Shown: piece after piece, positions 4,335-54,492 of the stretch
Layout of the letters: each line of letters starts with the position of its first letter
Numbering within the stretch: position 1 is the first letter of the stretch
From: an uncultured Acidobacteriota bacterium
GTDB lineage: Bacteria; Acidobacteriota; Vicinamibacteria; Vicinamibacterales; UBA2999
Assembly: GCA_963773045.1 (NCBI GenBank)
Contig: CAVYZT010000013.1
Location: 207,137-271,136, forward strand
Length of the DNA stretch: 64,000 nt
Direction: 5' to 3'
Position numbers and translations under genes: made by a program
Notes under the pieces: generated by a model
Database searches by the model: none
What the model saw: the letters and a program-made list of their open reading frames with translations, nothing else
Told to the model about the DNA's origin: nothing

Positions 4335-4419
4335 CAGGTTCAGCAGGTTCAGCAGGTTCAGCAGGTTCAGCAGGTTCAGCAGGTTCTGCGGGTTCTACAG
4401 GTTCTACAGGTTCCACGGG
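4335..4419. repeat. Tandem nonamer array (CAGGTTCAG)n, 5 perfect units then degenerate units
   Basis: Read directly. The same array with the same GAAC left flank recurs at 54440-54492. Confidence 0.9.
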
Positions 4420-7014: not shown

Positions 7015-7176
7015 TAGTTCAAAGTTGAAAAGTCCAAAGTTGAAAGTTTCAGTTTGGAGTTCAGTGAGAAGAATGTGAAGTTCCAAGTTCAGCAGCCGCG
7101 CGATGACTTTGAACTTGAAACTTCAACTGAACTGCAGACTTCAACTTAGAACTTTCAACTCTTGAACTTTCAACTT
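7015..7176. repeat. AT-rich imperfect inverted array of GTTGAAAGT/AGTTCAG words (two roughly 70-bp arms around CCGCGCGATGAC)
   Basis: Read directly. The reverse complement of the right arm re-uses the left-arm words in the same order. Confidence 0.8.
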
Positions 7177-7523: not shown

Positions 7524-7827
7524 GGTGTTTCCCTCCAAGAGTCGGGGCTGTCCACCTTCGCTGAAGCTACGGTGGACAAGTCCGCCTCCGCCCCGACTTC
7601 GCTCGAAGAGCTTCGTCGAGGTCTCGCCGGAGCGCTCTGCGCGACGGCGGACAAGGCTACGGTGCGACCGGAGCCTGGAGCAGAAGTGGATATCCGTCTC
7701 TGAAGACACTGTCCCGCGGGAATGTGGAGGAAATATGAGCCTTGTGACCTCTCCGCAAAAATTGATTGCGGCGCCGCCGATTCGGCTGGGAATCCCCGTC
7801 CTGTGACTCGCAGCCGAAGGGCCGCGC

Positions 7828-8969: not shown

Positions 8970-10079
8970 ATGCGCGACGACGCGTTGGCGCTGGTTGCCG
9001 TCGCCGCCATCGTCGCGCTCTTGCGGCTGGCCAGCCCGGTTGCGAATACGACGGTGGCGGCACTCTGCCTGGTGCTGGTCGTCCTGATCGTTGCCCGGAC
9101 GCTGAGCCGCCGCGCCGCGCTCACAGCGTCGCTCGTTGGCGTCCTCGCCTTCAACTTTTTCTTTCTTCCTCCGGTCGGTACGCTCACCATTGCCGATCCC
9201 CTGAACTGGGTCGCCGCTGGCGTGTTCCTGGCCCTGTCGTTGACCGTGAGCGAGCTGTCGGCCCGTGCCCGGCAGCAGACCGAGAAGGCGCACGCCCATC
9301 GTCTGGAGGCGGAGCGGCTCTATCGCGAATTGCAGGCCGCCTTCGATCGCGAGGCGCAGACCGAAGCCGACCGGCGGAGCGAGCGTCTGAAGAGCGAGCT
9401 GCTCGATGCCGTCACCCATAATCTGCGCACGCCGATCACGTCGATCAAGGCGTCAACGACGGCCCTGCTGTCACAGCCGTCGACCATGGGAGAAGCCGTT
9501 CGCCGAGAATTGTTGACCGTTGCGAATGAAGAAGCCGATCGACTGGATCTTCTGGTGGAAGACCTGATCGGCCTGGCTCGCATCCAGGCTGGAGAGCTTG
9601 GCCTTCAGATGTCGTGGTGCAGCCTGGACGATGTGATTGGCAGCGCCATCAAACGTGCCGAACGTCTGCTCGGGGCGCACACGCTCGAGGTTTCGGTCCC
9701 GCCGGATCTTCCGGTCGTCCGGGCCGACGCGCGCGCGCTCGAGGAGGTGGTGTTTCAGCTGCTGGAGAACGCGGCGAAGTATTCGCCACGCGGATCGCGC
9801 ATCGCGGTATCGGCGCGCGAAGAACCCGGTGAGCTGATCGAGATCCGAGTAGAGGACGAGGGTCCCGGCGTCGCCGCCGACGAGCGCGAACGCATCTTCG
9901 ACAAGTTCTATCGGTCGCCGGCCGCGGCGACCGCGGCCAGCGGCTCCGGGCTGGGCCTGGCGATCGTTCGTGGCATCGTCGATGCGCATCGAGGGGACGT
10001 GATGGTCACCGACCGCGCGGCGCAGCCCGGGGCGCGGTTCATCGTTCGTCTGCCGATTGGCGACGAGGACAACCCGTGA
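8970..10079 (+). CDS. kdpD: KdpD C-terminal half: DUF4118-type membrane domain plus HisKA plus HATPase_c
   Basis: Begins with KdpD-like TM helices (LAFNFFFLPPVGTLTIADP). H-box THNLRTPITSI. G-boxes DEGPGV and GSGLGLAI. Confidence 0.85.
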   Translation: MRDDALALVAVAAIVALLRLASPVANTTVAALCLVLVVLIVARTLSRRAALTASLVGVLAFNFFFLPPVGTLTIADPLNWVAAGVFLALSLTVSELSARARQQTEKAHAHRLEAERLYRELQAAFDREAQTEADRRSERLKSELLDAVTHNLRTPITSIKASTTALLSQPSTMGEAVRRELLTVANEEADRLDLLVEDLIGLARIQAGELGLQMSWCSLDDVIGSAIKRAERLLGAHTLEVSVPPDLPVVRADARALEEVVFQLLENAAKYSPRGSRIAVSAREEPGELIEIRVEDEGPGVAADERERIFDKFYRSPAAATAASGSGLGLAIVRGIVDAHRGDVMVTDRAAQPGARFIVRLPIGDEDNP

Positions 10080-10992: not shown

Positions 10993-12186
10993 ATGCGCAA
11001 CTCATTCTCTGTTCTTGCAGTCGCTGCCATGCTAAGCCTGGTTGCGGTTGGGGCGAGCGCACAGACGCCGGCACCGGCCGAGCCGGCCGAGCCGGCCCAG
11101 GCGTCTCCGGCGGCGGCCACGGCTGCCGACTCCTGGCGCGACATGACCTTCGGTGCGACGCTCGAGGCTTATTACCAGTTCAACGGCAATCATCCGCCCG
11201 ATCGCATCTCGTTGCTGCGCGCCTACGACACGCGCGCCAACACGTTTGCGATTCAACAGGCGACGCTCGTCACCGAGCTGGCGCCCGCCGTCGACAAAGG
11301 ACGCCGCTTCGGGCTGCGCGCGGATTTGATGTTCGGCCAGGCCACCGAGACCGTTCAGGGCGGGCCGGCCAACGAGCCGCGCCCCGATGTCTATCGCCAC
11401 ATCTGGCAGGCGTACGGATCCTATGTCTTCCCAGTCGGCAAAGGCTTGCGCACCGACTTCGGCAAATTCGCTTCGAACCTCGGCTACGAGACCAACTACG
11501 CGAAGGACAACGATCACTTCTCACGCGCGTATCTCTTCAACTTCCTGCCGTTCTATCACTCCGGCCTGCGCACGTCGCTGCCGGTCGGTGACAAGGTGAC
11601 GCTGATGTACATGCTGACCAACGGCATCCAGCAGACCGAGGATTTCAACGACTTCAAGTCGAATCACTTCAGCGCCGTGATTGCGCCGGTCGCCAACGTC
11701 TCGTGGACGACGAGCTATTACTTCGGCCAGGAACAGGCCGATGGCGGAGATCCGGGCGGTCCGGATGGATTCTTCCGCGTGTTCGACACCTACTTCTCCT
11801 GGACGCCGAACGCGCGCGGGCTGATTGGCGCCGACTTCAACCACGTTACCAACGAGGTGAACAAGGGTGACGAGGCGACTGCCCTCACCGGCTTGGGCCT
11901 TTACGGTCGGTTCAAGCCGTCGGATCCATCGACGCTCGCCATCCGCTACGAGCGGCTCGACGACGAAGGACTGTTCGGCGGCATCGATCAGGTACTGCAG
12001 GAGATCACCTTCACGGCGGAATGGAAGTTTGCCGACGGGTTCCTCGCGCGTCTGGAGCTCAGGGACGACTGGTCGAACGAGCGCTTCTTCACCGGCAGCG
12101 GCGGCGGCACCGACAAGCGCACGAGCCAGCCGACGGCGATGCTCGCCGTCGTGTGGTGGATGGGGAACAAGACGGGGACTTGGTAG
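10993..12186 (+). CDS. Outer-membrane beta-barrel porin (OmpL/porin-2-like), kdp-associated
   Basis: Signal peptide MRNSFSVLAVAAMLSLVAVGASAQ. Alternating beta-strand pattern. C-terminal aromatic residue (...KTGTW). Confidence 0.7.
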   Translation: MRNSFSVLAVAAMLSLVAVGASAQTPAPAEPAEPAQASPAAATAADSWRDMTFGATLEAYYQFNGNHPPDRISLLRAYDTRANTFAIQQATLVTELAPAVDKGRRFGLRADLMFGQATETVQGGPANEPRPDVYRHIWQAYGSYVFPVGKGLRTDFGKFASNLGYETNYAKDNDHFSRAYLFNFLPFYHSGLRTSLPVGDKVTLMYMLTNGIQQTEDFNDFKSNHFSAVIAPVANVSWTTSYYFGQEQADGGDPGGPDGFFRVFDTYFSWTPNARGLIGADFNHVTNEVNKGDEATALTGLGLYGRFKPSDPSTLAIRYERLDDEGLFGGIDQVLQEITFTAEWKFADGFLARLELRDDWSNERFFTGSGGGTDKRTSQPTAMLAVVWWMGNKTGTW

Positions 12187-12276
12187 CTGTTCGCCTTTCG
12201 CTTTTCGCAATTCGCAACGCACCCACGCTCGTGCGAACCGCGAACCGCGAACCGCGAATAGCGAACAGCGAATTGC
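12187..12276. repeat. Inverted heptad arrays (NNTTCGC)n ... (GCGAANN)n forming a long imperfect hairpin
   Basis: Left arm gctgttcgcctttcgcttttcgcaattcgc. Right arm gcgaacc x3, gcgaata, gcgaaca, gcgaatt. Confidence 0.85.
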
Positions 12277-12295
12277 AAAAACCCTTGGAGGTTTG

Positions 12296-12379
12296 ATGCT
12301 GCTAATTGGAATGATCGTTCTTGGGCTCGCAACCTTTGCCGCGATGCTGGGGTTCGTCACGTTCTGCGATCGCATCTGA
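12296..12379 (+). CDS. 27-aa hydrophobic peptide upstream of kdpF (KdpF/KdpG-like accessory peptide?)
   Basis: GGAGG 4 nt before the ATG. MLLIGMIVLGLATFAAMLGFVTFCDRI forms a single TM helix. Below the ORF-track size cutoff. Confidence 0.4.
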   Translation: MLLIGMIVLGLATFAAMLGFVTFCDRI

Positions 12380-12388
12380 GGGGAACGC

Positions 12389-12469
12389 CATGACCGTCCT
12401 GTCTCTCGTATTGAGCATCGCCGCATTCGTGTACCTCGTTTACGCGATGCTGCGCCCAGAGCGGTTTTG
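12389..12469 (+). CDS. kdpF: K+-transporting ATPase subunit F
   Basis: 26-aa MTVLSLVLSIAAFVYLVYAMLRPERF with the KdpF C-terminal signature (Y-L-x-Y-A-[LM]-L-R-P-E-R-F). GAGGGG RBS. Immediately upstream of kdpA. Confidence 0.75.
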
Positions 12470-12510
12470 AACCGCGAATAGCGAACCGCGAACAGCGAAC
12501 AGCGAACAGC
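12470..12510. repeat. Heptad array (GCGAANN)n between kdpF and kdpA
   Basis: gcgaata gcgaacc gcgaaca gcgaaca gcgaaca. Same unit as 12233-12276. Confidence 0.85.
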
Positions 12511-12512
12511 AT

Positions 12513-14219
12513 ATGACCACCGAATACATCGCCATCGTCATCACGATCGCATTCACGATCGCGACCAGTCTGATCCTCGGCCGGTACATGTTCAAGGTGT
12601 TCACCGGCCAGCGGACCCTGCTCGATCCGGCCTTGGTTCCGATCGAGCGCCTGGTGCTCCGGGTGACCGGTGTGGATCCGAATCAACAGCAGGATTGGAA
12701 GCAGTATTCGGTGTCACTGCTGGTCTCGAACGTCGTGATGTGGCTCGCCACCTTTGCCATCGTCTCGCTTCAGCAGTGGCTGCCGATCAATCCCGACGGC
12801 ATCGCGAACATGGAGCCGACGCTGTCGTTCAACACGATCTCGAGCTTCACGACCAACACCAACCTGCAGCACTACAGCGGCGAGACGGGGTTGTCGTACT
12901 TCTCGCAGATGTTCGTCATCTCGTTTCTGCAATTCGTGACCGCGGCCACCGGCGTCGCCGCGTGCATCGCCACCATCCGCGGCCTGGGAAACAATCGCCT
13001 CACCGAGCTTGGCAACTTCTACGTCGATCTCACGCGGGCGACCGTTCGCCTCTTCCTCCCGCTGGCCCTGCTGGTCTCGGTCGTGATCATGTCGCAGGGA
13101 ACGCCGATGACGTTCGAGGGGGCGGCCAAGGCGACGACGGTTGAGGGACAGGAACAGTCGATCGCGCGCGGCGTGACGGCGGCAGTCGTGTCGATCAAGC
13201 AGCTGGGCACCAACGGCGGTGGGTACTTCGGCCCGAACTCGGCGCATCCCTTCGAGAACCCGACGCCGCTCACCAATTTCGTCGAGACGTGGTCGATCAC
13301 GATCATCCCCATGGCGATGGTCTGGACTCTGGGGTACATGCTCGGGCGGCGCCGCCTCGCCGTTACGATCTTCGCGACCATGCTCGCCCTCTATCTCCCG
13401 ATGGTCGTGTTCGGCGTGTCGCAGGAAGTCGGGGGCAATCCCGCGATTGCGCGCATGGGCGTCGATCAGTCCACCGGGTCGATGGAGGGCAAGGAAGTGC
13501 GATTCGGCGCCGGGCTCTCGGCGCTGTGGGCGGTGACGACGACGGTGACGTCGAACGGGTCGGTGAACAGCATGCACGACTCGATGACGCCGCTCGGCGG
13601 GTTGATGCCCCTCATCGGCATGTGGCTGAACAACATCTTCGGCGGCGTTGGTGTCGGCTTCATCAACATGCTGATCTTCGTCATCGTCGCGGTGTTCGTC
13701 GCCGGCATGATGATCGGCCGCACGCCCGAGTTCCTGGGCAAGAAGGTCGAAGCCAAGGAGATGAAGCTGGCCAGCCTGGCGATGCTCTGGCATCCGCTGG
13801 CCATTCTCGTGGGCACCGCCATCGCCGCCTACGTGTGGGTGATCACGCCCGATCCGGGAACGGCGCTGGCCTGGCTGAAGAATCCGGGTCCGCATGGCTT
13901 CTCCGAGATGTTGTACGAGTTCAGCTCGTCGGCGGCGAACAACGGCTCCGGCTTCGAAGGGCTGGGCGACAACACGCCCTTCTGGAACATCGCCTGCGGC
14001 CTCGTGATGCTGCTGTCGCGCTACATCCCGATCATCGCGCCGCTGGCGCTGGCGGGATCGCTGGCGGCAAAGCCGGCGGCGCCGGAGACAGCCGGCTCGC
14101 TTCGAGCCGACACGCCGACGTTCGGCTTCACGCTGTGGGCCGTGATCGTGATTCTCGGTTTGTTGATGTTCATGCCGGTCGCAGTGCTGGGACCGATTGC
14201 GGAGTACCTGGCGCTGTGA
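12513..14219 (+). CDS. kdpA: K+-transporting ATPase subunit A
   Basis: 568-aa polytopic protein with a KdpA-like N-terminus and length, sitting within the kdp context. Confidence 0.95.
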   Translation: MTTEYIAIVITIAFTIATSLILGRYMFKVFTGQRTLLDPALVPIERLVLRVTGVDPNQQQDWKQYSVSLLVSNVVMWLATFAIVSLQQWLPINPDGIANMEPTLSFNTISSFTTNTNLQHYSGETGLSYFSQMFVISFLQFVTAATGVAACIATIRGLGNNRLTELGNFYVDLTRATVRLFLPLALLVSVVIMSQGTPMTFEGAAKATTVEGQEQSIARGVTAAVVSIKQLGTNGGGYFGPNSAHPFENPTPLTNFVETWSITIIPMAMVWTLGYMLGRRRLAVTIFATMLALYLPMVVFGVSQEVGGNPAIARMGVDQSTGSMEGKEVRFGAGLSALWAVTTTVTSNGSVNSMHDSMTPLGGLMPLIGMWLNNIFGGVGVGFINMLIFVIVAVFVAGMMIGRTPEFLGKKVEAKEMKLASLAMLWHPLAILVGTAIAAYVWVITPDPGTALAWLKNPGPHGFSEMLYEFSSSAANNGSGFEGLGDNTPFWNIACGLVMLLSRYIPIIAPLALAGSLAAKPAAPETAGSLRADTPTFGFTLWAVIVILGLLMFMPVAVLGPIAEYLAL

Positions 14220-14222
14220 AAG

Positions 14223-14296
14223 GGCTTGGGACTTGGGGCTTGGGACTTGGGGTTTAGCTGGCCTTCAGTCCCAGGCCCCAAGCCCCAGGCCCCAAG
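14223..14296. repeat. Inverted heptad arrays (CTTGGGR)n / (CCCCARG)n forming a hairpin between kdpA and kdpC
   Basis: ggcttgggacttggggcttgggacttgggg ... agtcccaggccccaagccccaggccccaag. Confidence 0.85.
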
Positions 14297-14902: not shown

Positions 14903-14939
14903 GCACAGCCCCAAGCCCCAAGCCAAAAGACACAGAACC

Positions 14940-17046: not shown

Positions 17047-17313
17047 GAAGGCAGACAAGGCAGAAGGCACAAGGCAGAAGGCACAAGGCAGAAGGCACAA
17101 GGCAGAAGGCACAAGGCAGAAGGCGACAAGGCAGAAGGCACAAGGCAGAAGGCAACAAGGCAGAAGGCACAAGGCAGAAGGCAACAAGGCAGAAGGCACA
17201 AGGCAGAAGGCACAAGGCAGAAGGCACAAAGGCAGAAGGCACAAGGCAGAAGGCACAAGGCAGAAGGCCCAAGCCCCAAGCCCCAAGCCCCAAGCCCCAA
17301 GCCTCAAGCCTCA
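17047..17313. repeat. About 220-bp heptad array (GAAGGCA/CAAGGCA, 14-bp super-unit, about 30 heptads) followed by (CCCCAAG)n
   Basis: Read directly. It starts 2 nt after the kdpB stop and ends 9 nt before the next start. Occasional 8-nt units occur. Confidence 0.95.
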
Positions 17314-17321
17314 GGACAACC

Positions 17322-18509
17322 GTGACGACCAACCGCAGCGCGTTCGAAGATCGGCGTCCCGATGCGGCGTCGCTGCTCGCCAAGCTCAACGAGAGCGACC
17401 GGGCTCGGCTTCGCGTGTACATCGGCGCGGCGCCAGGGGTCGGCAAGACCTATCAGATGCTCGAGGACGCGCATCAACTGAAGCGCCAGGGCATCGACGT
17501 CGTCATCGGCTACATCGAGCCGCACGGCCGCGCCGACACACTGTCGCTGGTCGACGGGCTGGAGATCGTCCCGCGGCGGGTCCTGTCGTACCGGGACGTG
17601 AAGCTCGAGGAGATGGATGTTGAGGCGATCAAGGCGAGGAAGCCGCAGATCGTCCTGGTGGACGAGCTGGCGCACACCAACGTGCCCGGCTCAGCGCACG
17701 AGAAGCGGTACGAAGACGTCCTCGATCTGCTGAACAGCGGCATCTCCGTGATCACGGCGATCAACATTCAGCACATCGAGTCGCTCAACGACGTGGTCGT
17801 CAGAAGCAGCGGCATTCACGTGCGCGAGACCGTTCCAGACTGGTTTCTGCACCGCGCCGACGAGGTGGTCAACGTCGACGTCTCGGTCGAGACGCTGCGC
17901 ACGCGCCTGCTGCAGGGCAAGATCTACGGCGTCGAGAAGATCGAGCAGGCGCTCGCCAACTTCTTTCGCAAGGGCAATCTGTCGACGCTGCGCGAGCTGG
18001 CGCTGCGCCAGCTGGCGATGAACCAGGCCGAGCAGTCGCACGAGTATCGCGAGCGCGAAGGGCTCGAGGACCCGGCGATTCCGGAAAAAGTGATGGTCGC
18101 CATCGCGTCGCGCGGCAGCGCGACGAGACTGCTGCGCACCGGGTCGCGAATCGCCGGCCGGCTGGCGTCCGACTGGTACGCCGTGTACGTCGAGACGCCG
18201 AGCGAGGAGCCAGGGAGTATCACTCCCGAGGCGCACGCCGCCTTGATGAACAACATCCGCTTCGCCGAGCATCTCGGTGCGCGCGTCGTCAAGCTCAAGG
18301 GCAAGCGCGTGGCCGACGCGCTCATCGAGTTCGCGCGCCGCGAAGGCATCACGCACGTGATCTTCGGGCAGTCGGCCAGGTCGCGCTGGAGCCTCTTCTG
18401 GAGCGGCTCGATCGTCAACCGCTTCCTCGCCGAGGTGAGGAATGCCACCGTCCACGTCGTCCCGCAGGGGCCAGACGACGAGGCGAAGGCGGGCGAGGCG
18501 CCCGCATAA
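17322..18509 (+). CDS. Stand-alone KdpD N-terminal sensor domain plus Usp domain protein (paralogue 2, intact Walker A)
   Basis: LRVYIGAAPGVGKTYQML...VVIGYIEPHGR...VDELAHTN...KRYEDVLDLLNSGISVITAINIQHIESL, then a Usp-like half. No membrane or kinase part. Confidence 0.85.
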   Translation: MTTNRSAFEDRRPDAASLLAKLNESDRARLRVYIGAAPGVGKTYQMLEDAHQLKRQGIDVVIGYIEPHGRADTLSLVDGLEIVPRRVLSYRDVKLEEMDVEAIKARKPQIVLVDELAHTNVPGSAHEKRYEDVLDLLNSGISVITAINIQHIESLNDVVVRSSGIHVRETVPDWFLHRADEVVNVDVSVETLRTRLLQGKIYGVEKIEQALANFFRKGNLSTLRELALRQLAMNQAEQSHEYREREGLEDPAIPEKVMVAIASRGSATRLLRTGSRIAGRLASDWYAVYVETPSEEPGSITPEAHAALMNNIRFAEHLGARVVKLKGKRVADALIEFARREGITHVIFGQSARSRWSLFWSGSIVNRFLAEVRNATVHVVPQGPDDEAKAGEAPA

Positions 18510-22000: not shown

Positions 22001-22078
22001 GCATCTGCTTTCGGCACTCTGCTTTCGGCCTTCGGCAAGAGAGCTGATAGCTGAAAGCTGAGAGCTGAGGGCACTCCT

Positions 22079-23939: not shown

Positions 23940-24108
23940 TGAGCGAGAGGACGGGTCGTGAGCGGAGGAGTCAGCCGTGTCAGACGGCTGAGCGGGCGAA
24001 TGATCTGCTGCGGTCTCGGCGTCGATAGAGGAACAGCTTACGCACGAACGAACAGTGGGTCAAACGAACATTGCGCGCTGGTTGGTGGCGCCTTCGAGGC
24101 GGGACTGA

Positions 24109-24156
24109 AGTCCCGCCCTACTGACGGACGACAGTCCCGTCCTACTGACGGACGAC
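24109..24156. repeat. 24-bp tandem duplication spanning the stop codon of the propeller gene
   Basis: agtcccgccctactgacggacgac / agtcccgtcctactgacggacgac. A GGGACTGAAGTCCC hairpin lies just outside. Confidence 0.8.
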
Positions 24157-26510: not shown

Positions 26511-26588
26511 GTTGCCGAACGACCGATCGACTGATTTAGCGACTGTTGGGTGAAGTCGGTCGATCGGTCGATCGCTAATTTGGCAATG
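26511..26588. repeat. Minimal copy (two termini back to back) of the CGATCG-rich TIR element family
   Basis: gttgccgaacgaccgatcgactgatttagcgactg ... gtcggtcgatcggtcgatcgctaatttggcaat. Confidence 0.7.
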
Positions 26589-29418: not shown

Positions 29419-29477
29419 GTAGCGCCCAGCTTACGGACCGCGAAGGCCGGCGGGAATGCGGTCAATTGTCGCAGCTG

Positions 29478-29549
29478 GTTGCAGCTGGGACAGTCCCCGT
29501 GGTTGCAGCTGGGGACAGTCCCCGGGGACTGTCCCCGGGGACTGTCCCC
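29478..29549. repeat. Four tandem copies of the 13-bp palindrome GGGGAC-N-GTCCCC, nested in an outer inverted repeat (29463-29474 / 29592-29602)
   Basis: Read directly. 29511-29536 is a perfect 26-bp palindrome. Lies in the divergent TBDR/regB region. Confidence 0.9.
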
Positions 29550-29661
29550 AATGGCGAGAGTTTTGCGCGATCGGCAGTTTCTTCTACGAACCTGCGACAA
29601 TTCGCCGCAGCTCCGTTAATCGACCGATTGACCGATTTGTCCCGGCCACCCCACTACACTG

Positions 29662-30933
29662 GTGTCGGAAATGGCCGAATCGCCACTCGACGCAGGGCCG
29701 CTCGTCACCGGGCCGTGGCTCGTGCGCTTGCGGTGGGCCGCGGTCGGCGCGCAGGCCATCGGCGTTGCCGTGGCCGTTCGCGCCCTCGGTCTGGCGCTGC
29801 CCCTGCTGCCGATTGCCACCCTGATCACAATCCTCGGCGCCAGCAACATCGTTCTTGGCTGGTGGGTCTCTCAGGGCCGTCCAGCGCCACCGCGGATGTT
29901 TGGCGCGGTGCTCACCGCCGACGTGATGATGCTGACGGCTCTGCTCTGGCTTGCCGGCGGCGCGTCCAATCCATTCACAGTCGTCTATCTCGTCTACATC
30001 GCGCTCGCGGCGGTCACGTTGGGATCAGAGTGGACGTGGACGATCGCGGCGCTCGCCGTCGCCGGCTACGCGACGCTGTTTGCGATCGCCCCGCCTGCCG
30101 ATCCGCACGACATGCACCGGCCGGCGAACGACCTGTCGGGCCACCTGGCCGGCATGTGGGTAGCGTTCCTGTCTGCTGCCGTGCTCATTGGGTTTTTCGT
30201 CACGCGCGTGCGTGCCGCGCTCGACGCACGCGAGCGCGATTTGGCCGAAGCCAGACGCCAGGCGGCGCTGCAGGATCGGCTGGCATCGCTGACGACCCTT
30301 GCCGCCGGCGCCGCGCACGAATTGGCGACGCCGCTGGCGACGATCGCCGTCGCGTCGAAGGAATTGGTCCACGCAGCCGAAGCGACGACCGACTCGGCGC
30401 TCATCGATGACGCGCGGCTGATTCGATCGCAAGTCGAGCGCTGCCGGCAGATTCTCGATCACATGAGCGGCCGCGCCGACGCGACCACAGTCGATCCACC
30501 CGCGCTCATCGATCCCGTGGTCGTCGTGCGCGAGGCCATCGAGGCGCTGCCATCGGGCGCCGCATCGCGCGTGCTCACCCGCGTGCAAGGCGCCGCCCCT
30601 GGCGTGCGAATCCCGCGAGTCGGTGTCGCGCGCGTGCTGACGACGCTGCTCAAGAACGCGCTCGATGCCTCGCCCGACGGATCGCCGGTTGAGATTGCCG
30701 TCACCGCATCAGCCGATCAATTGCAGTTTGCCGTGAGCGATTCGGGCCAGGGGATGGACGACGCGACGCTGGCGCGAGCTGGCGAGCCGTTTTTCACCAC
30801 CAAGGCGCCCGGCGCGGGCTTTGGGCTCGGCCTCTTCCTCGCGCGCACCTTCGTCGAACAGTGGGGCGGCCGCTTCACTCTCCGGTCGCAGCCTGGACAT
30901 GGCACCGTGGCGGCCGTCGAGTTCTTCAATTAG
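29662..30933 (+). CDS. regB: Redox-sensing histidine kinase RegB/PrrB family
   Basis: Six TM helices containing the GGASNPF (GGxxNPF) box. H-box AAHELATPLATI. Conserved Cys in VERCRQILDHM. Confidence 0.8.
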   Translation: MSEMAESPLDAGPLVTGPWLVRLRWAAVGAQAIGVAVAVRALGLALPLLPIATLITILGASNIVLGWWVSQGRPAPPRMFGAVLTADVMMLTALLWLAGGASNPFTVVYLVYIALAAVTLGSEWTWTIAALAVAGYATLFAIAPPADPHDMHRPANDLSGHLAGMWVAFLSAAVLIGFFVTRVRAALDARERDLAEARRQAALQDRLASLTTLAAGAAHELATPLATIAVASKELVHAAEATTDSALIDDARLIRSQVERCRQILDHMSGRADATTVDPPALIDPVVVVREAIEALPSGAASRVLTRVQGAAPGVRIPRVGVARVLTTLLKNALDASPDGSPVEIAVTASADQLQFAVSDSGQGMDDATLARAGEPFFTTKAPGAGFGLGLFLARTFVEQWGGRFTLRSQPGHGTVAAVEFFN

Positions 30934-30980
30934 GGCTGGTGGGGCTGGTGGGGCTGGTGGGGCGGGTGGGGGGGTGAGGC
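30934..30980. repeat. G-rich decamer array (GGGCTGGTGG)n, G-quadruplex-capable
   Basis: GGGCTGGTGGGGCTGGTGGGGCTGGTGGGGCGGGTGGGGGGG begins directly after the regB stop. Confidence 0.85.
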
Positions 30981-31562: not shown

Positions 31563-31776
31563 CATTGCCGATCGACTGAATGGCCGATTGACCGATGGTT
31601 TGGCGGATGGGTGAATGTGGAATGTGTCAATCGATCGAGCGATCGACAATTGCACGATTGAGTCACTAGATCGCGAACTCACCGAATCACACAACAGTCG
31701 TCCCTCGACTACGCTCGGGACGACCCTGAGCGGAGTCGAAGGGTCGCTAAATCAGTCGATCGATCGTTCGGCAATT
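31563..31776. repeat. CGATCG-rich TIR element, full-length copy
   Basis: Left end cattgccgatcgactgaatggccgattgaccgatggtttgg. Right end tcgctaaatcagtcgatcgatcgttcggcaatt. Homologous to 35723-35890 along its length. Confidence 0.75.
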
Positions 31777-33060: not shown

Positions 33061-33158
33061 GATGGCTGGGAGCGCAAGTCGTGCGCCCGCGCATCCTAGC
33101 CTGGGTCGAGTCTGCGTCGCAGTACGTCTTAGGTCCTACTCTTGGCGCGCCGCCCTGT

Positions 33159-33240
33159 AGGGGCCTGGCCCGTTCTCAGAAACTGGGACGCCGGTACGGT
33201 TCTTCCGTCGTCGCAGGTTCTGCGAACGGGCCAGGCCCCT
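33159..33240. repeat. GGGGCCTGGCCC-ended hairpin element, copy 1
   Basis: AGGGGCCTGGCCCGTTC ... GAACGGGCCAGGCCCCT (17-bp perfect stem, about 48-nt loop), just downstream of the ADOP gene stop. Confidence 0.85.
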
Positions 33241-33253
33241 AGTCGCTAGGCCC

Positions 33254-35725
33254 CTAGTCGCCGCGCAGCGCGTCGACCGGAGCGATCCGCGCGGCCTTGA
33301 TCGCGGGGGCCGTCACCGCGATCGCGGCGACGATCGCCAGAACCAGCGTCGACGCGGCGAGCGCAACCCCGTCGAACGGGCTCACGCCGAACAGGACTCC
33401 TCGCAGCAGTCGATCGGCCGCGATCGTCAGCACGATCCCGAGCACGATCCCCCCGGCGAGCAGCCGCCCTGCGCCGCTGACGACGAGCCGAATCATCTGA
33501 GACGGCTCGGCACCGATGGCGAGGCGGAGCGCCATCTCGCGTGACCGCTCCGAGACGATCAGCATGAAGAGGCTGTAGAGGCCGACCGCGGCGAGCGTCA
33601 CGGCGGCGGTCGCGAACAGACTCAACATCGTCGCGTCGAGCCGCGGCCGATCGAGCGCGGCATCGAGCACCGCCTGGAGGGGTCGCACGCCGAACACCGC
33701 GCGGCCCGGTTCGATCTCGCCGACGATTCGCCGGAGCGCGCCTGCGAGGGCTCGCGGATCGCTGGTTCGGACGACGTACTCGGGGTCGGGCCAGGCGCCG
33801 GCCGGACTGCAGGTATAGACGTACGGCGCTGGACTTGCGGCGTGGCCGTCTTCGGCCAGATTTCCAAGGATGCCTGTGATCGTGAAATTCGCCCCGCCCG
33901 CCTGCGTGAGCGTCACCGTGCGACCGATGAGGTCCTGTCCGCCGGCGAAAACCTCGACGAAGCGGTGGTTGACCAGCGCCGAGAGCGGGACGCCGCGGCC
34001 GCCGATGCCGAGCGCCGGACATGACGATCCACCGACGAGTTGCGCGCGAATCGCGCGCACGTAGCCGCCGCCGATCATCCGCGTGCCGACCGTCATCGAT
34101 CCGTCCTCGTTCGGGCCGACCAGGCCGCTCACCTTGAACTCATAGCGCAGCGTGGCGCCAGTGGCCGGGAAGAAGTTCGTCAGGCCCGCTGCCTGCACGT
34201 GCGGCAACTGCTCGAGCCTCGAGAGCAGCTCCTGCTGCAGCAGGCCGATGCGCGCGCGGTCTTCGTCCCAGCGCGCGGCGACGTGGAACGTGATCACACT
34301 CGAGGGATCGAAGCCGACGTCGATGCGGGTCAAGTTGGCATAGCTGCGTAGCAACAGCGTGGCCGAACCGACCAGCAAAACGCTCAGCGCCACTTGAGCG
34401 ACGACCAGCAGGCGTTGTACGCGGTGATGTCCGCCGCCGACGGCGCGATTGCCGGCGGCCAGCGCCGGGGTCAGCGTGGCGCGTGTGCTGGTGATCGACG
34501 GGATGAGGCTGAACACGAACGCAGCGAGGACGCTGGTGGCGGCGACAAACGACAGCGCGCGCCAGTCGAGCGCCACCTCGTTGATGCGCGGCGTTCGCGT
34601 GAGGATCGCCGGCATGAGTGACAACAGCCAGGCCGTGAGCAGCGTCCCAAGCGCGCCGCCGGCGACGGCGATCAACAGCCCTTCGCGAACCACCGTGGCG
34701 ACCACCCGCACCCGCGAGGCTCCCAACGCGACGCGCAGCGCGAGCTCTCGCGCGCGACGCTGCATCTGGACCAGCGTCAGCCCCGCGATATTGGCGACGG
34801 CGATCACCCAGAGCGAGGCGACGGCGCCGAGCACGATGACGAGCCCACGCCCGGCATCGCCAACCCGCGCGTCTTTCAGGCCGCGGAGCTGTACCGACCA
34901 GCCAGCGTCGGTCTTGGGAAAGTCCCGCGCTAGCGCGTCCTGCACCGACGCCAGTTCACGCTGGCCCGCGTCGATGGTCACGCCGCGCTTCAGCCGCCCG
35001 ACGCCCTGGACGAAGCGGGCGTTGCGCACGGCCAGAAGGCCGGGAGGCGTTTGCGACGGCAGCCAGACATCGGTCGTCGCGCTCGTGAAGGTCGCGGGCA
35101 TCACGCCGACGATCTCGTAGGATCGCCCGCCGATCTTCAGGGCGTGGCCGATGGCGGCCGGGCTGCCTTGGAATCGCCGCGTCCAGAATCGCTCGCTGAT
35201 GATCGCGGCCCCCGGTCCGCCGAAGGCTTCCTCGGCGTCGGTGAAATACCGGCCGGCGATTGGCGGCGTCGCGAACACGGCGAAGAATCGGGGCTGCACG
35301 CGTCGGCCTTCCAGGCGCTCGGGCTCCGCGCCGCTCGTGTCGGTGACGTTCTCGTTATAGCTGCCCGAGATTCCGGTGAAGCTCTGGCTCAGCCGCTGCC
35401 AGTCTTCCAGCCGGCCGGGCGCGACGAGGCCGATGTCCTGTGCGGCAGGGGAATTGGAACTCGACTCGTAGACGGTCACGAGCCGATCGGAATCGGGATA
35501 CGGCAGCGGCTTGATCAGCACGGTATCCACCAGCGAGAACACCGCCGCGGTGATTCCCGTGCCGAACCCAAGCGTGAGCACGGCCGACGCCAGAAACGCG
35601 GGCCGCCGCCCAAGCGACCGCAGCGCCTGCCGCCAGGCTGAAGACTGAATCCACTGCGACGGCCACTTCCATACGTCCTGGTGACGCGTTGGACGGACGA
35701 CACCTCGGGCGAACCGTTGGCTCAT
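33254..35725 (-). CDS. ADOP-family duplicated ABC permease (MacB-like, two FtsX domains)
   Basis: N-terminal RQALRSLGRRPAFLASAVLTLGFG, two MacB_PCD/FtsX modules, about 820 aa. The ATG 35725 lies inside the terminus of a dispersed repeat. Confidence 0.85.
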   Translation of the reverse strand: MSQRFARGVVRPTRHQDVWKWPSQWIQSSAWRQALRSLGRRPAFLASAVLTLGFGTGITAAVFSLVDTVLIKPLPYPDSDRLVTVYESSSNSPAAQDIGLVAPGRLEDWQRLSQSFTGISGSYNENVTDTSGAEPERLEGRRVQPRFFAVFATPPIAGRYFTDAEEAFGGPGAAIISERFWTRRFQGSPAAIGHALKIGGRSYEIVGVMPATFTSATTDVWLPSQTPPGLLAVRNARFVQGVGRLKRGVTIDAGQRELASVQDALARDFPKTDAGWSVQLRGLKDARVGDAGRGLVIVLGAVASLWVIAVANIAGLTLVQMQRRARELALRVALGASRVRVVATVVREGLLIAVAGGALGTLLTAWLLSLMPAILTRTPRINEVALDWRALSFVAATSVLAAFVFSLIPSITSTRATLTPALAAGNRAVGGGHHRVQRLLVVAQVALSVLLVGSATLLLRSYANLTRIDVGFDPSSVITFHVAARWDEDRARIGLLQQELLSRLEQLPHVQAAGLTNFFPATGATLRYEFKVSGLVGPNEDGSMTVGTRMIGGGYVRAIRAQLVGGSSCPALGIGGRGVPLSALVNHRFVEVFAGGQDLIGRTVTLTQAGGANFTITGILGNLAEDGHAASPAPYVYTCSPAGAWPDPEYVVRTSDPRALAGALRRIVGEIEPGRAVFGVRPLQAVLDAALDRPRLDATMLSLFATAAVTLAAVGLYSLFMLIVSERSREMALRLAIGAEPSQMIRLVVSGAGRLLAGGIVLGIVLTIAADRLLRGVLFGVSPFDGVALAASTLVLAIVAAIAVTAPAIKAARIAPVDALRGD

Positions 35726-35890
35726 TGCCGATTGACTGAACGACCGATCGACCGACTGTTTGGTGATGGCCAATCGGTCGATTGGGTGAATCAATCGGAC
35801 GATTGACGATGGCTCGATCGATTCCCGAAATCCCGAAATCACCCAATCACGAAACAGTCGCTAAATCGGTCGATCGGTCGTTCGGCAATT
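35723..35890. repeat. CGATCG-rich TIR element, full-length copy
   Basis: cattgccgattgactgaacgaccgatcgaccgactgtttgg ... cagtcgctaaatcggtcgatcggtcgttcggcaatt. The termini are inverted repeats sharing ATTGCCGA and ACGACCGATCGACCGA. Confidence 0.8.
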
Positions 35891-35903: not shown

Positions 35904-36374
35904 CTACCTCTCCATGGCGTCTTTGATGAACGACAGGCGGGGCGTCACCGGATTGATGAAGAGCAACGTCGCGCCGGTCTCGTCCAGCAGCTGGGCCGTG
36001 GGCAGCATCCGGCCACTCAGAGGATTTGGACTGAGGCACGGCACGATACCGACGCGTCCAGCGGCGCGGGTCGGGTCTGGCGTGTATTCCAGCGTCGCCG
36101 CTTCACCGACACGCAGGCGCACGTCCTGCTTGGCGAGGATCTCGCCCGCGGCATCGTGAATCATGAACTGGCCCGCGCACGCGCGTGGCGCGATGCCCGC
36201 GGCCCCGTGCTCCGAGCACACCGCGTGCAGTTGAATCGTTTCTCCCGGCCGGACGCTGATCATCCCGAACGCCGGCGGGTCTGGCTGCGGATCGAAGGCC
36301 AGGGCCGGGTACCACCACAGCCCCGCCAATCCGATTGCCGTCGCGGCCGCAATTGCCAAGGATCGCTTCGTCAT
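35904..36374 (-). CDS. Secreted hypothetical protein
   Basis: ATG 36374 preceded by GGAGGA. Signal peptide MTKRSLAIAAATAIGLAGL. No motif recognised. Confidence 0.5.
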   Translation of the reverse strand: MTKRSLAIAAATAIGLAGLWWYPALAFDPQPDPPAFGMISVRPGETIQLHAVCSEHGAAGIAPRACAGQFMIHDAAGEILAKQDVRLRVGEAATLEYTPDPTRAAGRVGIVPCLSPNPLSGRMLPTAQLLDETGATLLFINPVTPRLSFIKDAMER

Positions 36375-36423
36375 GTGTCCTCCACCATGACTAGCGGCCT
36401 TCGCGGCCGGAATTCTCAACCAT

Positions 36424-36504
36424 GAGAGGGATTACCACGAAGATAGGAACAACCACGAAAATGACCTTTCTCGTGGTGATCTTTCTTCGTGGTTTATCCC
36501 TCTC
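36424..36504. repeat. AT-rich nested palindrome: four ACCACGARRA words (two forward, two reverse)
   Basis: Outer stem gagagggattaccacgaaga / tcttcgtggtttatccctctc. Inner stem accacgaaaa / tttctcgtggt. Confidence 0.85.
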
Positions 36505-36508
36505 GTGG

Positions 36509-39207: not shown

Positions 39208-39424
39208 CATTGTCGATCGACTGTATGACTGATCGACCGACTGTTGACGATTCCGTGATCGCCCGATTTCGCGATTCCATTTCGCGAAGCGTCGATTGTC
39301 AGTCGTTACGCTGCCGATCGGCCGGCCCATTAGACGTCGCTGAAATCGTCCGATGAATCGCCAATTATCAAGATCGTCTCTCACCAAACAGTCAGTCGAT
39401 CGGTCGTCCAATAGATCGACAATC
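39208..39424. repeat. CGATCG-rich TIR element, diverged copy
   Basis: cattgtcgatcgactgtatgactgatcgaccgactgtt ... cagtcagtcgatcggtcgtccaatagatcgacaat. Confidence 0.65.
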
Positions 39425-42653: not shown

Positions 42654-42719
42654 AGAGAGTTCGGGGAGTTCCGGGAGAATATTTTCTCCCTGATCTCCCT
42701 GATCTCCCTGTGAATCCGG

Positions 42720-44207: not shown

Positions 44208-44380
44208 GTTCGTAACTCCTCCTGTTTCCGGCAGCCGGGATCCGGCAGCCGGCCCAGTAGCCGGCACCCAGCTCTTGTTGCCGGATCCCGGTTCCCGGTT
44301 CTCTCTCTATTTCTTGAGACGTCGGAGGCGCCTTCAGCAGTCTTAACGGAGGATTACAACTGTGTAAGGAGTCGAACCGG

Positions 44381-44519
44381 CATCCGGCATCCGGCATCCG
44401 GCATCCGACATCCGACATCCGGCATCCGGCATCCGGCATCCGGCATCCGGCAGACAGCAGTCAGCGGACTGCGGACTGTGGACTGAGGACTGAGGACCGT
44501 GGACCGTGGACTTTGGACC
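44381..44519. repeat. Two adjacent heptad arrays: (CATCCGR)x10 and (GGACYGN)x7-8
   Basis: Read directly. The second array abuts the kinase stop codon at 44521. Confidence 0.95.
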
Positions 44520-46570: not shown

Positions 46571-46596
46571 AAGGCGGATCGTAACAGTTCATGCGG

Positions 46597-46694
46597 AATC
46601 TGGAGATCTGGTGACGTCGTGATCTCGTGATCGATCGTGCGATCTGGCGATCTGGTGATCTGGTGAGCGATCGGTTGATCTATCTGGTGATCGA
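46597..46694. repeat. Degenerate 7-8-nt array (GATCTGGY)n
   Basis: gatctggcgatctggtgatctggtgagcgatcggttgatctatctggtgatcg. Confidence 0.8.
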
Positions 46695-46711
46695 ATTGCC
46701 TTGTGAGAGTC

Positions 46712-47014
46712 GTAGGGCGCGACTTTAGTCGTGCCCCTCGATTGGAGTAGGCCACGACTTTAGTCGTGCAGGAGGAGGAATTGGAGTGCCTCTCGAGTGG
46801 AGTAGGGCACGACTTTGGTCGTGCCTCTCGGGTGGAGTAGGCCACGACTTTAGTCGTGCAGGAGGAGGAATTGGAGTGCCTCTCGAGTGGAGTAGGGCAC
46901 GACTTTAGTCGTGCCTCTCGGGTGGAGTAGGCCACAACTTAGTCATATCGCTGAGTGGTGCCATCAGATGCGGGGTCACGTCCGTGCCGAGTAGGGCATG
47001 ACCTTTGTCATGCC
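46712..47014. repeat. REP array, 7 copies of GTAGG-GCAYGAC-TTTA-GTCRTGCC hairpins, including a roughly 90-bp higher-order duplication
   Basis: Copies start at about 46712, 46747, 46802, 46827, 46892, 46927 (degenerate) and 46991. The last is 37 bp upstream of the RAYT start. Confidence 0.9.
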
Positions 47015-47050
47015 ACTCACGGGACCACTGTTTGCACCAAGCAGCGAAGC

Positions 47051-47557
47051 ATGGCTCGACCTGTCCGCCTGCGCGAGGTCTCCTACGCCGGCTTTGCCGC
47101 CTACTTCGTGACGACGTGCACTCTGGATCGCGTATGTGTCTTTGAGAATGTCGAGTTTGGTCGCCTCGTCGCGGACGCACTTCTTTCACACGCTAGAGCG
47201 AATGCGTTTGCAGTTCCTGCGTACTGCCTGATGCCTGACCACGCGCACATCATCATGGTCGGCACACAAGAGAATTCGTCACTGTGCGAATTCGTAAAGG
47301 ACTGGAAACAAGCGTCAGGCTTCCAGTGGAGTCAGCGAGGAAATGGCAAACTCTGGCAGATCGGCTACTGGGATCGCGTGCTCCGAGAAGACGAGGCGAT
47401 TCTATCGGTCGCGCGTTACGTGATCGAGAATCCAGTGCGCGCGAAGCTTGTCAGGGAACCGGCGGAGTATCCACTACTGGGATCGAGCGAGTACACGATT
47501 GCCGAGATTCTTGAAGCAGTCCAGATGAACTGGGGACGTCGGTGGAGATCGAGCTAA
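47051..47557 (+). CDS. REP-associated tyrosine transposase (RAYT, IS200/IS605 TnpA-like Y1 HUH enzyme)
   Basis: HUH motif in CLMPDHAHIIM. Catalytic Tyr context ARYVIENPVRAKL. 168 aa. Flanked by REP arrays. Confidence 0.85.
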   Translation: MARPVRLREVSYAGFAAYFVTTCTLDRVCVFENVEFGRLVADALLSHARANAFAVPAYCLMPDHAHIIMVGTQENSSLCEFVKDWKQASGFQWSQRGNGKLWQIGYWDRVLREDEAILSVARYVIENPVRAKLVREPAEYPLLGSSEYTIAEILEAVQMNWGRRWRSS

Positions 47558-47559
47558 TC

Positions 47560-47720
47560 GGCACGACATGCCCGACGACTCGATGGCATGACTGAAGTCA
47601 TACCCTACGACTCGATGGCATGACTAAAGTCATGCCCTACGACGCGACGACTCGATGGGATGACTGAAGTCATGCCCTACGACACCACGACTCGATGGCA
47701 TGACTAAAGTCATGCCCTAC
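47560..47720. repeat. REP array in the opposite orientation, 4 copies of GGCATGACTRAAGTCATRCCCTAC in a roughly 40-bp tandem unit, plus one partial copy
   Basis: Copies at about 47585, 47617, 47656 and 47697. They are the reverse complement of the upstream GTAGGGCATGAC... type. Confidence 0.9.
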
Positions 47721-47747
47721 GACGCGACGAGTCGCCAGCGTTCGACA

Positions 47748-48698
47748 TCAGCGCATCTTTTGCCATCGAGCGACCGCGCGGGCGTCGAGGCCCTGAAGAT
47801 CGTGGCTGCGGAGAAACTCGTTCACGAGTCCCAAGAGCTTCGGCGAGTCCTTGCGAACGGCCCACGCGTAGATGCCGTCCTGGCTCACGGAGACGTCCGG
47901 ATTGACCGCAATATTGTCGAGCGACCTCCGCCACGCGGCGACCAGATACTGGTCGGCGAGGGTGACGGGCACGCGGCCGTCGTTCACCATCCGCAGCAGG
48001 TCTTCATCAGTCAGCGACGGATCCATCGCGACGATCTTGCAGACGGGCTTGTTGATCTTGGCGAGCTGCCCGTTCAACCGCGTGAGGCTCGAGAAGTGAT
48101 CGCTGCCGCGACGGACATGAATCGAGCGGCCGGCCACGTCCTCGAGACTGACAATCGGCTGGACGCCAGGGCCGGTCAACAGGACCTCGCGCACGTCCTT
48201 GACGATCGGCTCGCTGAACGCGACGAGTTCCTCGCGCTCGAAGGTGTGCGCGAAACGGCCGGCGATCATGTCGCCGCGGCCGCTCGTCAGGGCGGCGAGC
48301 AACTCCTCAGGTGGCATCGGAATGAAGACCACCTTCACGCGCGTCGCGCCGGTGTCTGACGCAACGCGGACGAACGACTCGAACGCCTTGCCGGCTTCGA
48401 ACGCCGCGCCGTACTGCTGCCCGTCGTCGATCGAATAGTTGGTCTGGCCGCGCGCGACCAGAACACGAATGGTGCCACGCGACGTCATCGCGTCGACGTC
48501 GCCGGTGGCCGGCGTGCTCGCCAGCGCCATCTCTCTTGCCGACGGCGCAGGTTCTGGAGGCGTCTCGGCGATAGCCGTCTTTGGGTGTGCGGCTGTGGTT
48601 CCGCCAGCGCTGCTCGCGGTTGGCGCCGGTGCCGAGCACGCGGCGAAGGCGATGGCGCAGGTCGACACTGCGCACCATCTCAGGCACCCACCCCGCAT
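47748..48698 (-). CDS. Lipoprotein with a type-3 periplasmic solute-binding (MltF N-terminal-like) domain
   Basis: Leader ..CAIAFAAC. GTIRVLV..., bilobal SBP_bac_3-like pattern. No transglycosylase domain. Confidence 0.65.
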   Translation of the reverse strand: MRGGCLRWCAVSTCAIAFAACSAPAPTASSAGGTTAAHPKTAIAETPPEPAPSAREMALASTPATGDVDAMTSRGTIRVLVARGQTNYSIDDGQQYGAAFEAGKAFESFVRVASDTGATRVKVVFIPMPPEELLAALTSGRGDMIAGRFAHTFEREELVAFSEPIVKDVREVLLTGPGVQPIVSLEDVAGRSIHVRRGSDHFSSLTRLNGQLAKINKPVCKIVAMDPSLTDEDLLRMVNDGRVPVTLADQYLVAAWRRSLDNIAVNPDVSVSQDGIYAWAVRKDSPKLLGLVNEFLRSHDLQGLDARAVARWQKMR

Positions 48699-51159: not shown

Positions 51160-51162
51160 TTG

Positions 51163-51241
51163 GGGCCTGGCCCCTCGCCAAAAACTGCGATCCGGAAAGA
51201 TTCGTGCCGGGCGCGCAGTTTTTGACGAGGGGCCAGGCCCC
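51163..51241. repeat. GGGGCCTGGCCC-ended hairpin element, copy 2
   Basis: GGGGCCTGGCCCCTCGCCAAAAACTGCG ... CGCAGTTTTTGACGAGGGGCCAGGCCCC (27-bp stem, one mismatch), between the two DUF genes. Confidence 0.9.
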
Positions 51242-51252
51242 TAGAGGGAAAC

Positions 51253-54439: not shown

Positions 54440-54492
54440 CAGGTTCAGCAGGTTCAGCAGGTTCAGCAGGTTCAGCAGGTTCTGCAGGTTCG
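54440..54492. repeat. Tandem nonamer array (CAGGTTCAG)n, second locus
   Basis: gaac(aggttcagc)x4 aggttctgc aggttcgg. Near-identical to 4331-4400. Confidence 0.9.

Follow-up and report, generated by a model that had tools for sequence, protein, structure and literature searches.

Intergenic inverted-repeat elements of a Vicinamibacterales acidobacterium as probable gene-less derivatives of a cassette resembling 23S rRNA intervening sequences

A 64,000-nt stretch of DNA from an uncultured Vicinamibacterales acidobacterium (contig CAVYZT010000013.1, positions 207,137 to 271,136; hereafter the window), which comes from a soil bacterium, contains between its protein genes a family of inverted-repeat elements with CGATCG motifs, one of which (35723-35890) abuts the gene of an ADOP permease. 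These elements are most probably gene-less deletion derivatives, in the manner of MITEs (miniature inverted-repeat transposable elements) or mobile insertion cassettes (MICs), of a cassette lying between protein genes that carries a four-helix-bundle gene and resembles the intervening sequence (IVS) of 23S rRNA, a reading to which we assign a probability of roughly 0.68. Orthologous spacers of relatives are occupied patchily, one short form has spread between sites, and a long form with the same ends encloses a gene under selection and has given rise to one of the window copies by internal deletion. Of the two alternatives entertained in a first-pass annotation of this DNA, a non-autonomous transposable element and a structured RNA family, the former is supported by these three lines of evidence.

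For more than 30 years the IVS of 23S rRNA and S23p four-helix-bundle genes have been without an explanation. The clade described here offers the IVS architecture outside rRNA, together with gene-less offspring and filled and empty orthologous sites, so that the question of mobility becomes testable by comparative genomics and experiment. One element type would also link the abundant intergenic inverted heptamer arrays with the small genes for four-helix-bundle proteins that are lodged within operons, in several cases operons of defence (DISARM, CRISPR adaptation genes, methylase/HEPN pairs). On a more practical level, such elements break metagenome assemblies, mislead gene callers, and can supply or displace start codons.

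A dispersed family with compound ends

Four complete copies of 78-217 nt and one relic lie in the window (Table 1), where inspection of the sequence agrees with the four copies and a fragment located by the first-pass annotation. The smallest of these had been described as termini only; it does consist of ends only, yet it forms a complete element of minimal size, oppositely oriented, rather than a set of loose termini. The inverted ends noticed earlier prove to be compound structures of ~45 nt, CATTGCCGA...TCGGCAATG, built of degenerate 8-nt units (left-end consensus CATTGCCGAtyGACTGAAyGrCCGATyGACCGAcTGTTTGGTGA, right-end consensus TCACgAAACAGTCGCTAAATCrGTCGATCGrTCGTTCGGCAAT(G/T)) and ~80% identical in register. 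A 19-nt right-end pattern has six matches at three or fewer mismatches, compared with 0.15 in shuffled sequence, and a 32-nt left-end pattern has three, compared with none. An arm profile (nhmmer, built from 12 arms) recovers exactly eight arms (E 3e-16 to 4e-9) and the relic over the 64 kb, with no match beyond these, and a full-length profile adds no further copy in the window. It is thus virtually certain that the repeats constitute a real dispersed family.

The arms are degenerate 8-nt tandem arrays, within which Tandem Repeats Finder detects period-8 patches of 2-3.5 units. They exist in forms (A and B), distinguished by the placement of the unit TTTAGCGA/AATTAGCG, and the family termini are unique sequence. 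Arms belonging to separate copies reach a complementarity of 97% over 32 nt. Richness in CGATCG, by which the family had initially been characterized, is not its hallmark, for the hexamer is not enriched (143 occurrences versus 151 expected under a Markov model from its pentamers); the likeness therefore resides in the non-periodic unique segments CATTGCCGA, TTTAGCGA and CTGTTTGGTGA. Open reading frames (ORFs) enter the copies only as read-through of the arms, and the repeated ..KSVDRSF.. peptide of the first-pass annotation reappears as SVDRS(F) in seven places, each within an arm.

All copies are intergenic, as previously noted, and are set among ordinary chromosomal genes such as a kdp operon, two-component systems, transporters and the ADOP permease. 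Closest named homologues of two window proteins come from Vicinamibacterales, and exact-protein look-ups of two window proteins returned nothing on record. Because the genes neighbouring the four copies (MFS transporter, TonB-type outer-membrane protein, response regulator, BACON, ADOP permease, BNR/sortilin and DUF5916) are mutually unrelated, the repeats are not paralogous promoter regions, and an origin in paralogous ADOP-permease promoters is ruled out. A scan for promoter and terminator consensus sequences found nothing at the elements, and an Rfam scan found no rRNA in the window. Each window copy begins 7-26 nt downstream of a stop codon, which is weak evidence of targeting, since the empty spacers of relatives measure only 6-66 nt.

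Filled and empty spacers among relatives

Four contigs are syntenic with the window, namely a 92%-identical relative (P0001, available as gene coordinates and so as spacer lengths), L018/L021, L020 and L022. Within 22.8 kb of L020 the arm profile finds four complete elements, one arm at the edge of the stretch and one relic (9822-9844) at a place equivalent to that of the window relic, and it finds one element in each of L021 and L022. Occupancy of the orthologous spacers is patchy (Table 1): three sites occupied in the window are spacers of 6-66 nt in the 92% relative, and two have no element in L018. Empty sites in relatives, which the first-pass annotation had proposed to look for, are found at several orthologous spacers.

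The copy at 35723-35890 belongs to a 167-nt subfamily of five copies in five spacers of three genomes (the others being L020:6174-6340, 7722-7887 and 17903-18070, and L022:16927-17091), which align end to end with a mean column identity of 81% (73-84% pairwise). Two copies at the orthologous BACON/regulator site, in contrast, are only 64% identical. Resemblance across sites that exceeds resemblance at one site indicates that a single form has spread between sites, which is how a non-autonomous mobile element behaves. The window copies at 31563 and 35723, earlier said to align along their whole length, are only ~62% identical overall, and the former also holds a nested 42-nt palindrome.

Copies also occur beyond the syntenic relatives: an uncultured Acidobacterium metagenome-assembled genome (L005) has a complete 212-nt copy, and two metagenome contigs carry others. 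Exact-pattern scans covered 185,579 GTDB species genomes and 241 million JGI metagenome records, neither of which includes the source genome. The GTDB scan gave 15 matches. Two of these, in Acidobacteriota, were read, and a real copy was present in the first case but not in the second; the remaining 13 were single and scattered over other phyla, and for 11 of them the arm profile gave no better than E 2e-4 to 1.5. The JGI metagenome scan gave two real matches. Neither copies nor a four-helix-bundle gene were found in two distant Vicinamibacterales loci (L023 and L024), and a 91% relative (L019) shares only the BNR gene, with a different array of 9-10-mers downstream. The family appears to be narrowly distributed.

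A second palindromic spacer element of ~87 nt (TAGGGGCCTGGCCC...GGGCCAGGCCCCTA) is present in the same region, at 33153-33241 and 51162-51248 of the window and at ~6620-6720 of L022. One copy directly follows the ADOP stop codon, a place taken by a CGATCG element in L020 and by nothing in L021.

A long form enclosing a four-helix-bundle gene

The arm-profile search also uncovered a long form of 645 nt, at L020:12817-13461 and L021:12892-13536, in the spacer after an outer-membrane-protein gene. Its ends are those of the short family, followed by sub-terminal 8-mer arrays, and between them lies one ORF as the only cargo, with no transposase. The product, of 119-120 aa, matches PF05635 ('23S rRNA-intervening sequence protein', E 2e-14 and 5e-15), TIGR02436 ('four helix bundle protein', E 3e-21 and 8e-22) and the PDB entry 2rld. 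Protein identity between the two orthologues is 86%, and their 50 synonymous versus 17 non-synonymous codon differences indicate that the cargo gene is under purifying selection.

In the window the spacer that holds the long form in L020 and L021 is occupied by the 78-nt copy 26511. This copy aligns to L020:12817-13463 at positions 1-35 (33/35) and 603-646 (38/44) with one gap, and it has the unusual left end CATTGCCAAATTAGCGATCGACCGATCGACCGACT in common with the long form. It is a clean internal deletion of the long form at the same locus. The 167-nt consensus corresponds to the long element over its initial ~100 nt and again over its final ~88 nt, so that the short family represents the long form minus its central ~460 nt.

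The JGI source annotation of L021 misses the four-helix-bundle gene (13054-13416) and places instead a 165-aa ORF on the wrong strand (12802-13299, minus) across the long element, an instance of how gene callers are misled.

Inverted arrays around plasmid four-helix-bundle genes

A tblastn search of plasmids with the cargo protein returned 28 records, and ten loci were examined from Cyanobacteriota, Chloroflexota, Spirochaetota and Bacteroidota (the plasmid loci, L025-L036, being from Gloeocapsa, Pseudanabaena, Planktothrix, Chlorohelix, Treponema, Bernardetia, Chondrinema, Anabaena and Euhalothece). In all ten the four-helix-bundle gene has a tandem array of 7-8-nt units upstream and the reverse complement of that array downstream, with local-alignment z scores of 3.5 to 22 relative to shuffles. 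The unit differs from plasmid to plasmid, for example (GATTTAC)n in Planktothrix, (GAAAGNG)n over 250 nt in Treponema, (TCACTAA)15 in Bernardetia and (CTGGTCA)13 in Euhalothece. The only heptamer arrays in a 50-kb region of the Treponema plasmid are the three around this gene, as are two of the three in a 50-kb region of the Bernardetia plasmid. Seven of the ten genes are oriented like the annotated genes on both sides, and the host operons include DUF1156/Swt1-HEPN (twice), DrmD/MmeI of DISARM, a helicase/N6-methylase pair and an RND adaptor/permease pair; two other plasmid four-helix-bundle genes adjoin cas1, one of them between cas2 and cas1. No paper linking four-helix-bundle genes to short-repeat arrays was found in the body of literature that was searched, and the link may be noted elsewhere. 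A further array, (TAACTGA)5, lies at 2252-2287 of the Bernardetia locus L032, and TAACTGA is the unit of abundant intergenic repeats in Beggiatoaceae (PMC4679880).

A tentative generalization, which we regard as possible rather than probable, is that S23p/Avd-like genes (PF05635/TIGR02436) bracketed by inverted 7-8-nt arrays may form a widespread and unrecognised class of selfish cassettes. The IVS of 23S rRNA would then be members that landed in rRNA, gene-less derivatives would include the CGATCG family and perhaps many of the so far unexplained intergenic hairpins that heptamer arrays form in cyanobacteria, in Xanthomonas and in the genome studied here, and the pentameric protein would recognise the tandem units for mobility or maintenance.

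Hairpin folding

Each copy forms a long hairpin whichever strand is folded (z -4 to -8), that at 35723-35890 with an energy of -81.9 kcal/mol (z -7.7). Even so, the proposal of a structured RNA family is not borne out as far as a selected structure is concerned. The RNAalifold covariation term for five aligned copies is penalising (+3.84), with as many pairs broken as compensated, and a left arm pairs with the right arm of its own copy no better than with that of another (permutation p 0.83), although with five to ten sequences these tests are weak. Rfam returned no match at the gathering threshold and only chance hairpin matches far below it. Most copies join a form-A end to a form-B end though a better pairing partner exists elsewhere. 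Taken together, these results favour two different, putative recognition sites over a helix kept by selection.

Weighing the explanations

If the elements are derivatives of an IVS-like cassette, the short forms would be mobilised in trans via their ends, and these would serve as two different sites for protein recognition, one left and one right, and not as an RNA helix under selection. Elements would settle within a few bases downstream of stop codons, and upon co-transcription with neighbouring genes would fold into a long duplex, which RNase III would presumably cut by analogy with the IVS of 23S rRNA.

Several observations weigh against this interpretation. No target-site duplication, one of the features that the first-pass annotation had proposed to look for, is seen at the boundaries of 11 copies, though old copies could have lost one. 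Nor was a cognate transposase encountered: a Pfam search of the window found no transposase or other recombinase, and none is among the source-listed Pfam families of called genes in the relatives' loci, for which no dedicated recombinase scan was made. The window itself has no four-helix-bundle gene, its copies all being gene-less, and the gene-carrying form is found at one orthologous site in two genomes only. Since no second independent insertion of it was found, the view that gene and ends move as a unit draws on the architecture and on the analogy with IVS and plasmid loci. Filled and empty spacers were aligned at two sites (Kup/MCP and ADOP/BACON), where the flanks are too diverged for base-by-base alignment or for the definition of junctions and duplications; given this divergence, deletion instead of insertion may account for individual sites. 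The exact-pattern scans yielded only one and two true matches, meaning either that the family has a narrow range or that the patterns demanded too close a match, and no candidate emerged when proteins were searched for spurious ORFs with the 40-aa peptide translated from the element.

An alternative would be a classical MITE, mobilised by an ordinary insertion sequence (IS) with a DDE transposase elsewhere in the genome and with the four-helix-bundle gene as an accidental passenger, for the elements are small, non-coding, dispersed and insertion-polymorphic, have long terminal inverted repeats, and differ between their two ends in the arrangement of sub-repeats, as transposon ends do. We consider this unlikely, because no target-site duplication was seen, because no transposase was found in the window or among the source-listed Pfam matches for the relatives' genes, and because a gene between inverted arrays recurs in ten of ten unrelated plasmid loci as well as in rRNA IVS, which would not be expected of a chance passenger. 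Slightly less likely still is a non-mobile hairpin selected by the host at transcript ends (as terminator, insulator or mRNA stabiliser), conserved for its fold and spread by recombination. The placement of every copy 2-26 nt after a stop codon, the great stability of the hairpins on both strands, and the presence of other palindromes in equal post-stop positions would all be in keeping with such a role, but nearness to stop codons is largely forced by the shortness of empty spacers, compensatory covariation and preferential pairing within copies are lacking, and no T-run or terminator-like match is found at the elements. Moreover, presence and absence in close relatives and the occurrence of one form at five sites would still call for a mechanism of dispersal. 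That there is no family at all, the similarity being low-complexity CGATCG/GATC-rich likeness or independent 8-nt slippage in each spacer, could appeal to the periodicity of the arms, to a genome full of other 7-9-nt tandem arrays and to the genome-wide commonness of CGATCG. Its probability is negligible: the shuffles, the arm profile and the 167-nt alignment refute it, the hexamer is not enriched, and the copies have in common the non-periodic segments CATTGCCGA, TTTAGCGA, CTGTTTGGTGA and CACCCAATCAC, so that the mere low-complexity enrichment named at the outset as grounds for dismissing the family is not what is found. Derivation from an IVS-like four-helix-bundle cassette thus remains the preferred explanation. 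Integron attC sites, repetitive extragenic palindromes (REPs) and CRISPR were likewise considered and rejected by inspection of sequence features.

Comparison with known systems

The 23S rRNA IVS of Coxiella and Leptospira are 430-760 nt long, have terminal inverted repeats forming a stem and contain one S23p ORF; RNase III excises them from the transcript, and their mobility is a proposal that has never been demonstrated (PMC4990558). The long form in L020 and L021 is similar in size, in its stem-forming terminal inverted repeats, in its single ~120-aa PF05635 ORF, in having no transposase and in a sporadic distribution suggestive of mobility. It differs in lying between protein genes rather than in helix 25 or 45 of 23S rRNA, in its longer (~45 nt), periodic ends of 8-nt tandem units, and in having multi-copy, insertion-polymorphic gene-less derivatives (78-217 nt).

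With MITEs such as Correia/NEMIS, ERIC and RUP the family shares short length (under ~600 bp), lack of coding capacity, terminal inverted repeats, intergenic position, multiple dispersed copies varying in presence between strains or related genomes, and an origin by internal deletion. It departs from them in that neither a target-site duplication was seen nor a cognate transposase-bearing IS identified in the loci examined, the sole gene ever found inside being that of the four-helix-bundle protein. MICs combine terminal inverted repeats with a passenger gene, and the long form resembles them (MIC231) in carrying a passenger gene without a transposase.

Short-unit tandem arrays in spacers are known from cyanobacteria as STRR. 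Intergenic heptamer repeats (GGGAATC / GGGGA(C/T)T) of Xanthomonas and Nostoc have no known function; GGGAATC forms 70-75 convergent pairs in Xanthomonas, and four-helix-bundle genes go unmentioned in that study (PMC4692102). Such arrays are 7-9-nt tandem repeats of spacers, often in convergent inverted pairs able to form stem-loops, and the present arms resemble them in being degenerate arrays of 8-mers. The CGATCG elements, however, end in fixed sequence that is not periodic, and one locus can be aligned with another over the whole unit.

Avd is the pentameric nucleic-acid-binding partner of a reverse transcriptase. This accessory protein of diversity-generating retroelements belongs to the same four-helix-bundle superfamily as the cargo protein, PF05635 being mentioned in this connection (PMC10053308). 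In contrast to these retroelements, no reverse transcriptase, template or variable repeats are present near any copy.

REPs are described as imperfect palindromes, 20-40 nt long, whose head is GTAG or CGTC (PMC3733652). Like REPs and their composite arrays (REP/BIME, mobilised by RAYT), the elements are intergenic palindromes in many copies just after genes, but their termini (CATTGCCGA) have no GTAG or CGTC head. The window does contain a separate family of eleven REP-like, GTAG-headed palindromes (GTAGGGCAYGACTTTAGTCRTGCC), at 46712-47009 (plus strand), 47590-47720 (minus) and 24103-24121 (minus), which are grouped as two arrays in a gap of 1.28 kb that is free of genes (46589-47871); no gene for a RAYT-type transposase was found in the window.

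Individual copies and the start of the ADOP permease gene

Table 1. Elements, associated features and orthologous spacers (window positions unless stated otherwise)
Feature	Positions	Strand	Details
Element abutting the ADOP permease gene	35723..35890	+	168 nt; 167-nt subfamily; full-length profile 182 bits
Its left compound end, form A	35723..35771	+	five degenerate 8-nt units; nhmmer E 6e-16
Its right compound end, form B with TTTAGCGA unit, inverted	35840..35890	-	nhmmer E 3e-16
Copy between convergent response-regulator and BACON genes	31563..31776	+	patterns, arm profile
Nested 42-nt palindromic insertion TCCCTCGACTACGCTCGGGACGACCCTGAGCGGAGTCGAAGG in copy 31563	31701..31742	+	alignment to other copies
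Divergent copy	39208..39424	+	217 nt; both ends form A; tips ATTGTCGA...TCGACAAT; patterns, arm profile
Minimal copy	26511..26588	-	78 nt, ends only; 25 nt past outer-membrane-protein stop codon
Arm relic TCGACCGATTGACCGATTTG	29619..29637	+	divergent histidine-kinase/outer-membrane-protein spacer; arm profile
ATG homologous to relatives' ADOP start	35670..35672	-	alignment with L020, L021 and L022; L018 start
ATG from the element's terminal CAT	35723..35725	-	in frame with ADOP permease
DUF5916/BNR spacer			window filled (39208); 92% relative 66 nt; L018/L021 35 nt; L022 82 nt; genes absent in L020; site empty in three relatives
BACON/response-regulator spacer			window filled (31563); 92% relative 6 nt; L018/L021 two extra genes; L020 filled
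BNR/ADOP spacer			window small gene and element (35723); 92% relative 51 nt; L018/L021 GGTTCTGCG-repeat hairpin
Kup/MCP spacer			window heptamer array; L018/L021 11 nt; L020 filled; L022 filled
ADOP/BACON spacer			window different palindrome; L022 that same palindrome; L021 neither; L020 filled
Arrays of 7-9-nt units	4335-4413, 7016-7177, 12186-12510, 14222-14296, 14907-14924, 17047-17310		
Arrays of 7-9-nt units (continued)	22039-22069, 30933-30971, 42685-42710, 44227-44518, 54440-54491		

The element at 35723-35890 lies 13 nt past the stop codon of a small gene (35904-36374, minus strand). Its left end reads as the units CATTGCCG ATTGACTG AACGACCG ATCGACCG ACTGTTTG followed by GTGA, with a period of 8 reported by Tandem Repeats Finder at 35728-35755, and its right end is 93% complementary to 26512-26553. 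Copy 31563 lies 7 nt past one stop codon and 26 nt past the other, and its right end is 97% complementary to copy 26511. Its nested palindrome is flanked by a direct 4-nt duplication of GTCG (31697-31700 and 31743-31746) and is missing from the other copies, which at the aligned position run directly from AACAGTCG into CTAAATC. The window holds no second copy of this palindrome, and it is the sole insertion here with a visible target duplication. The divergent copy 39208 is situated 13 nt from the DUF5916 stop codon and 17 nt from the start of the BNR/sortilin gene.

The ADOP permease gene extends over 33254-35725, and in relatives it starts at an ATG eight codons before a WIQ/WIE motif. In the window a 5-nt deletion within 35660-35725, seen in comparison with L021 and L022, shifts the homologous ATG out of frame. 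Ahead of the conserved N-terminus the only ATG, GTG or TTG in frame is that at 35725-35723, provided by the terminal CAT of the element, if a GTG in the element interior (35842) is left aside. The first-pass claim that this CAT supplies the only available ATG is therefore possible; donation of the start codon by the element is plausible but unproven, and a sequencing or assembly indel or a decaying gene would explain the data equally well.

Compared with three relatives, the BNR/ADOP spacer of the window has gained ~730 nt adjoining element 35723. The gain consists of a hairpin of CCACGAA/TTCGTGG units (36420-36508) and the small gene (36374-35904, minus strand), whose 156-aa product has a hydrophobic, signal-peptide-like N-terminus and no Pfam match, with GGAGG upstream of the gene.

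Other short repeats of the window

Spacers of the window are rich in tandem arrays of 7-9-nt units (Table 1), several as inverted pairs, with units such as GAAGGCA (31 times), AAGCCCC, CCGGCAT (11 times), GGACTGT, GCGAACC, CAGGTTCAG and others. Three tandem copies of a perfect palindrome, GGGGACTGTCCCC, within a 25-nt repeat, occupy 29476-29549 in the histidine-kinase/outer-membrane-protein spacer and have only chance-level matches in Rfam. The 7-9-nt arrays resemble the STRR repeats of cyanobacteria and the arms of four-helix-bundle cassettes, and the same spacers of relatives hold different units, GGTTCTGCG at L018 12700-12880 and GGAAGGTGCT at L019 2575-2660.

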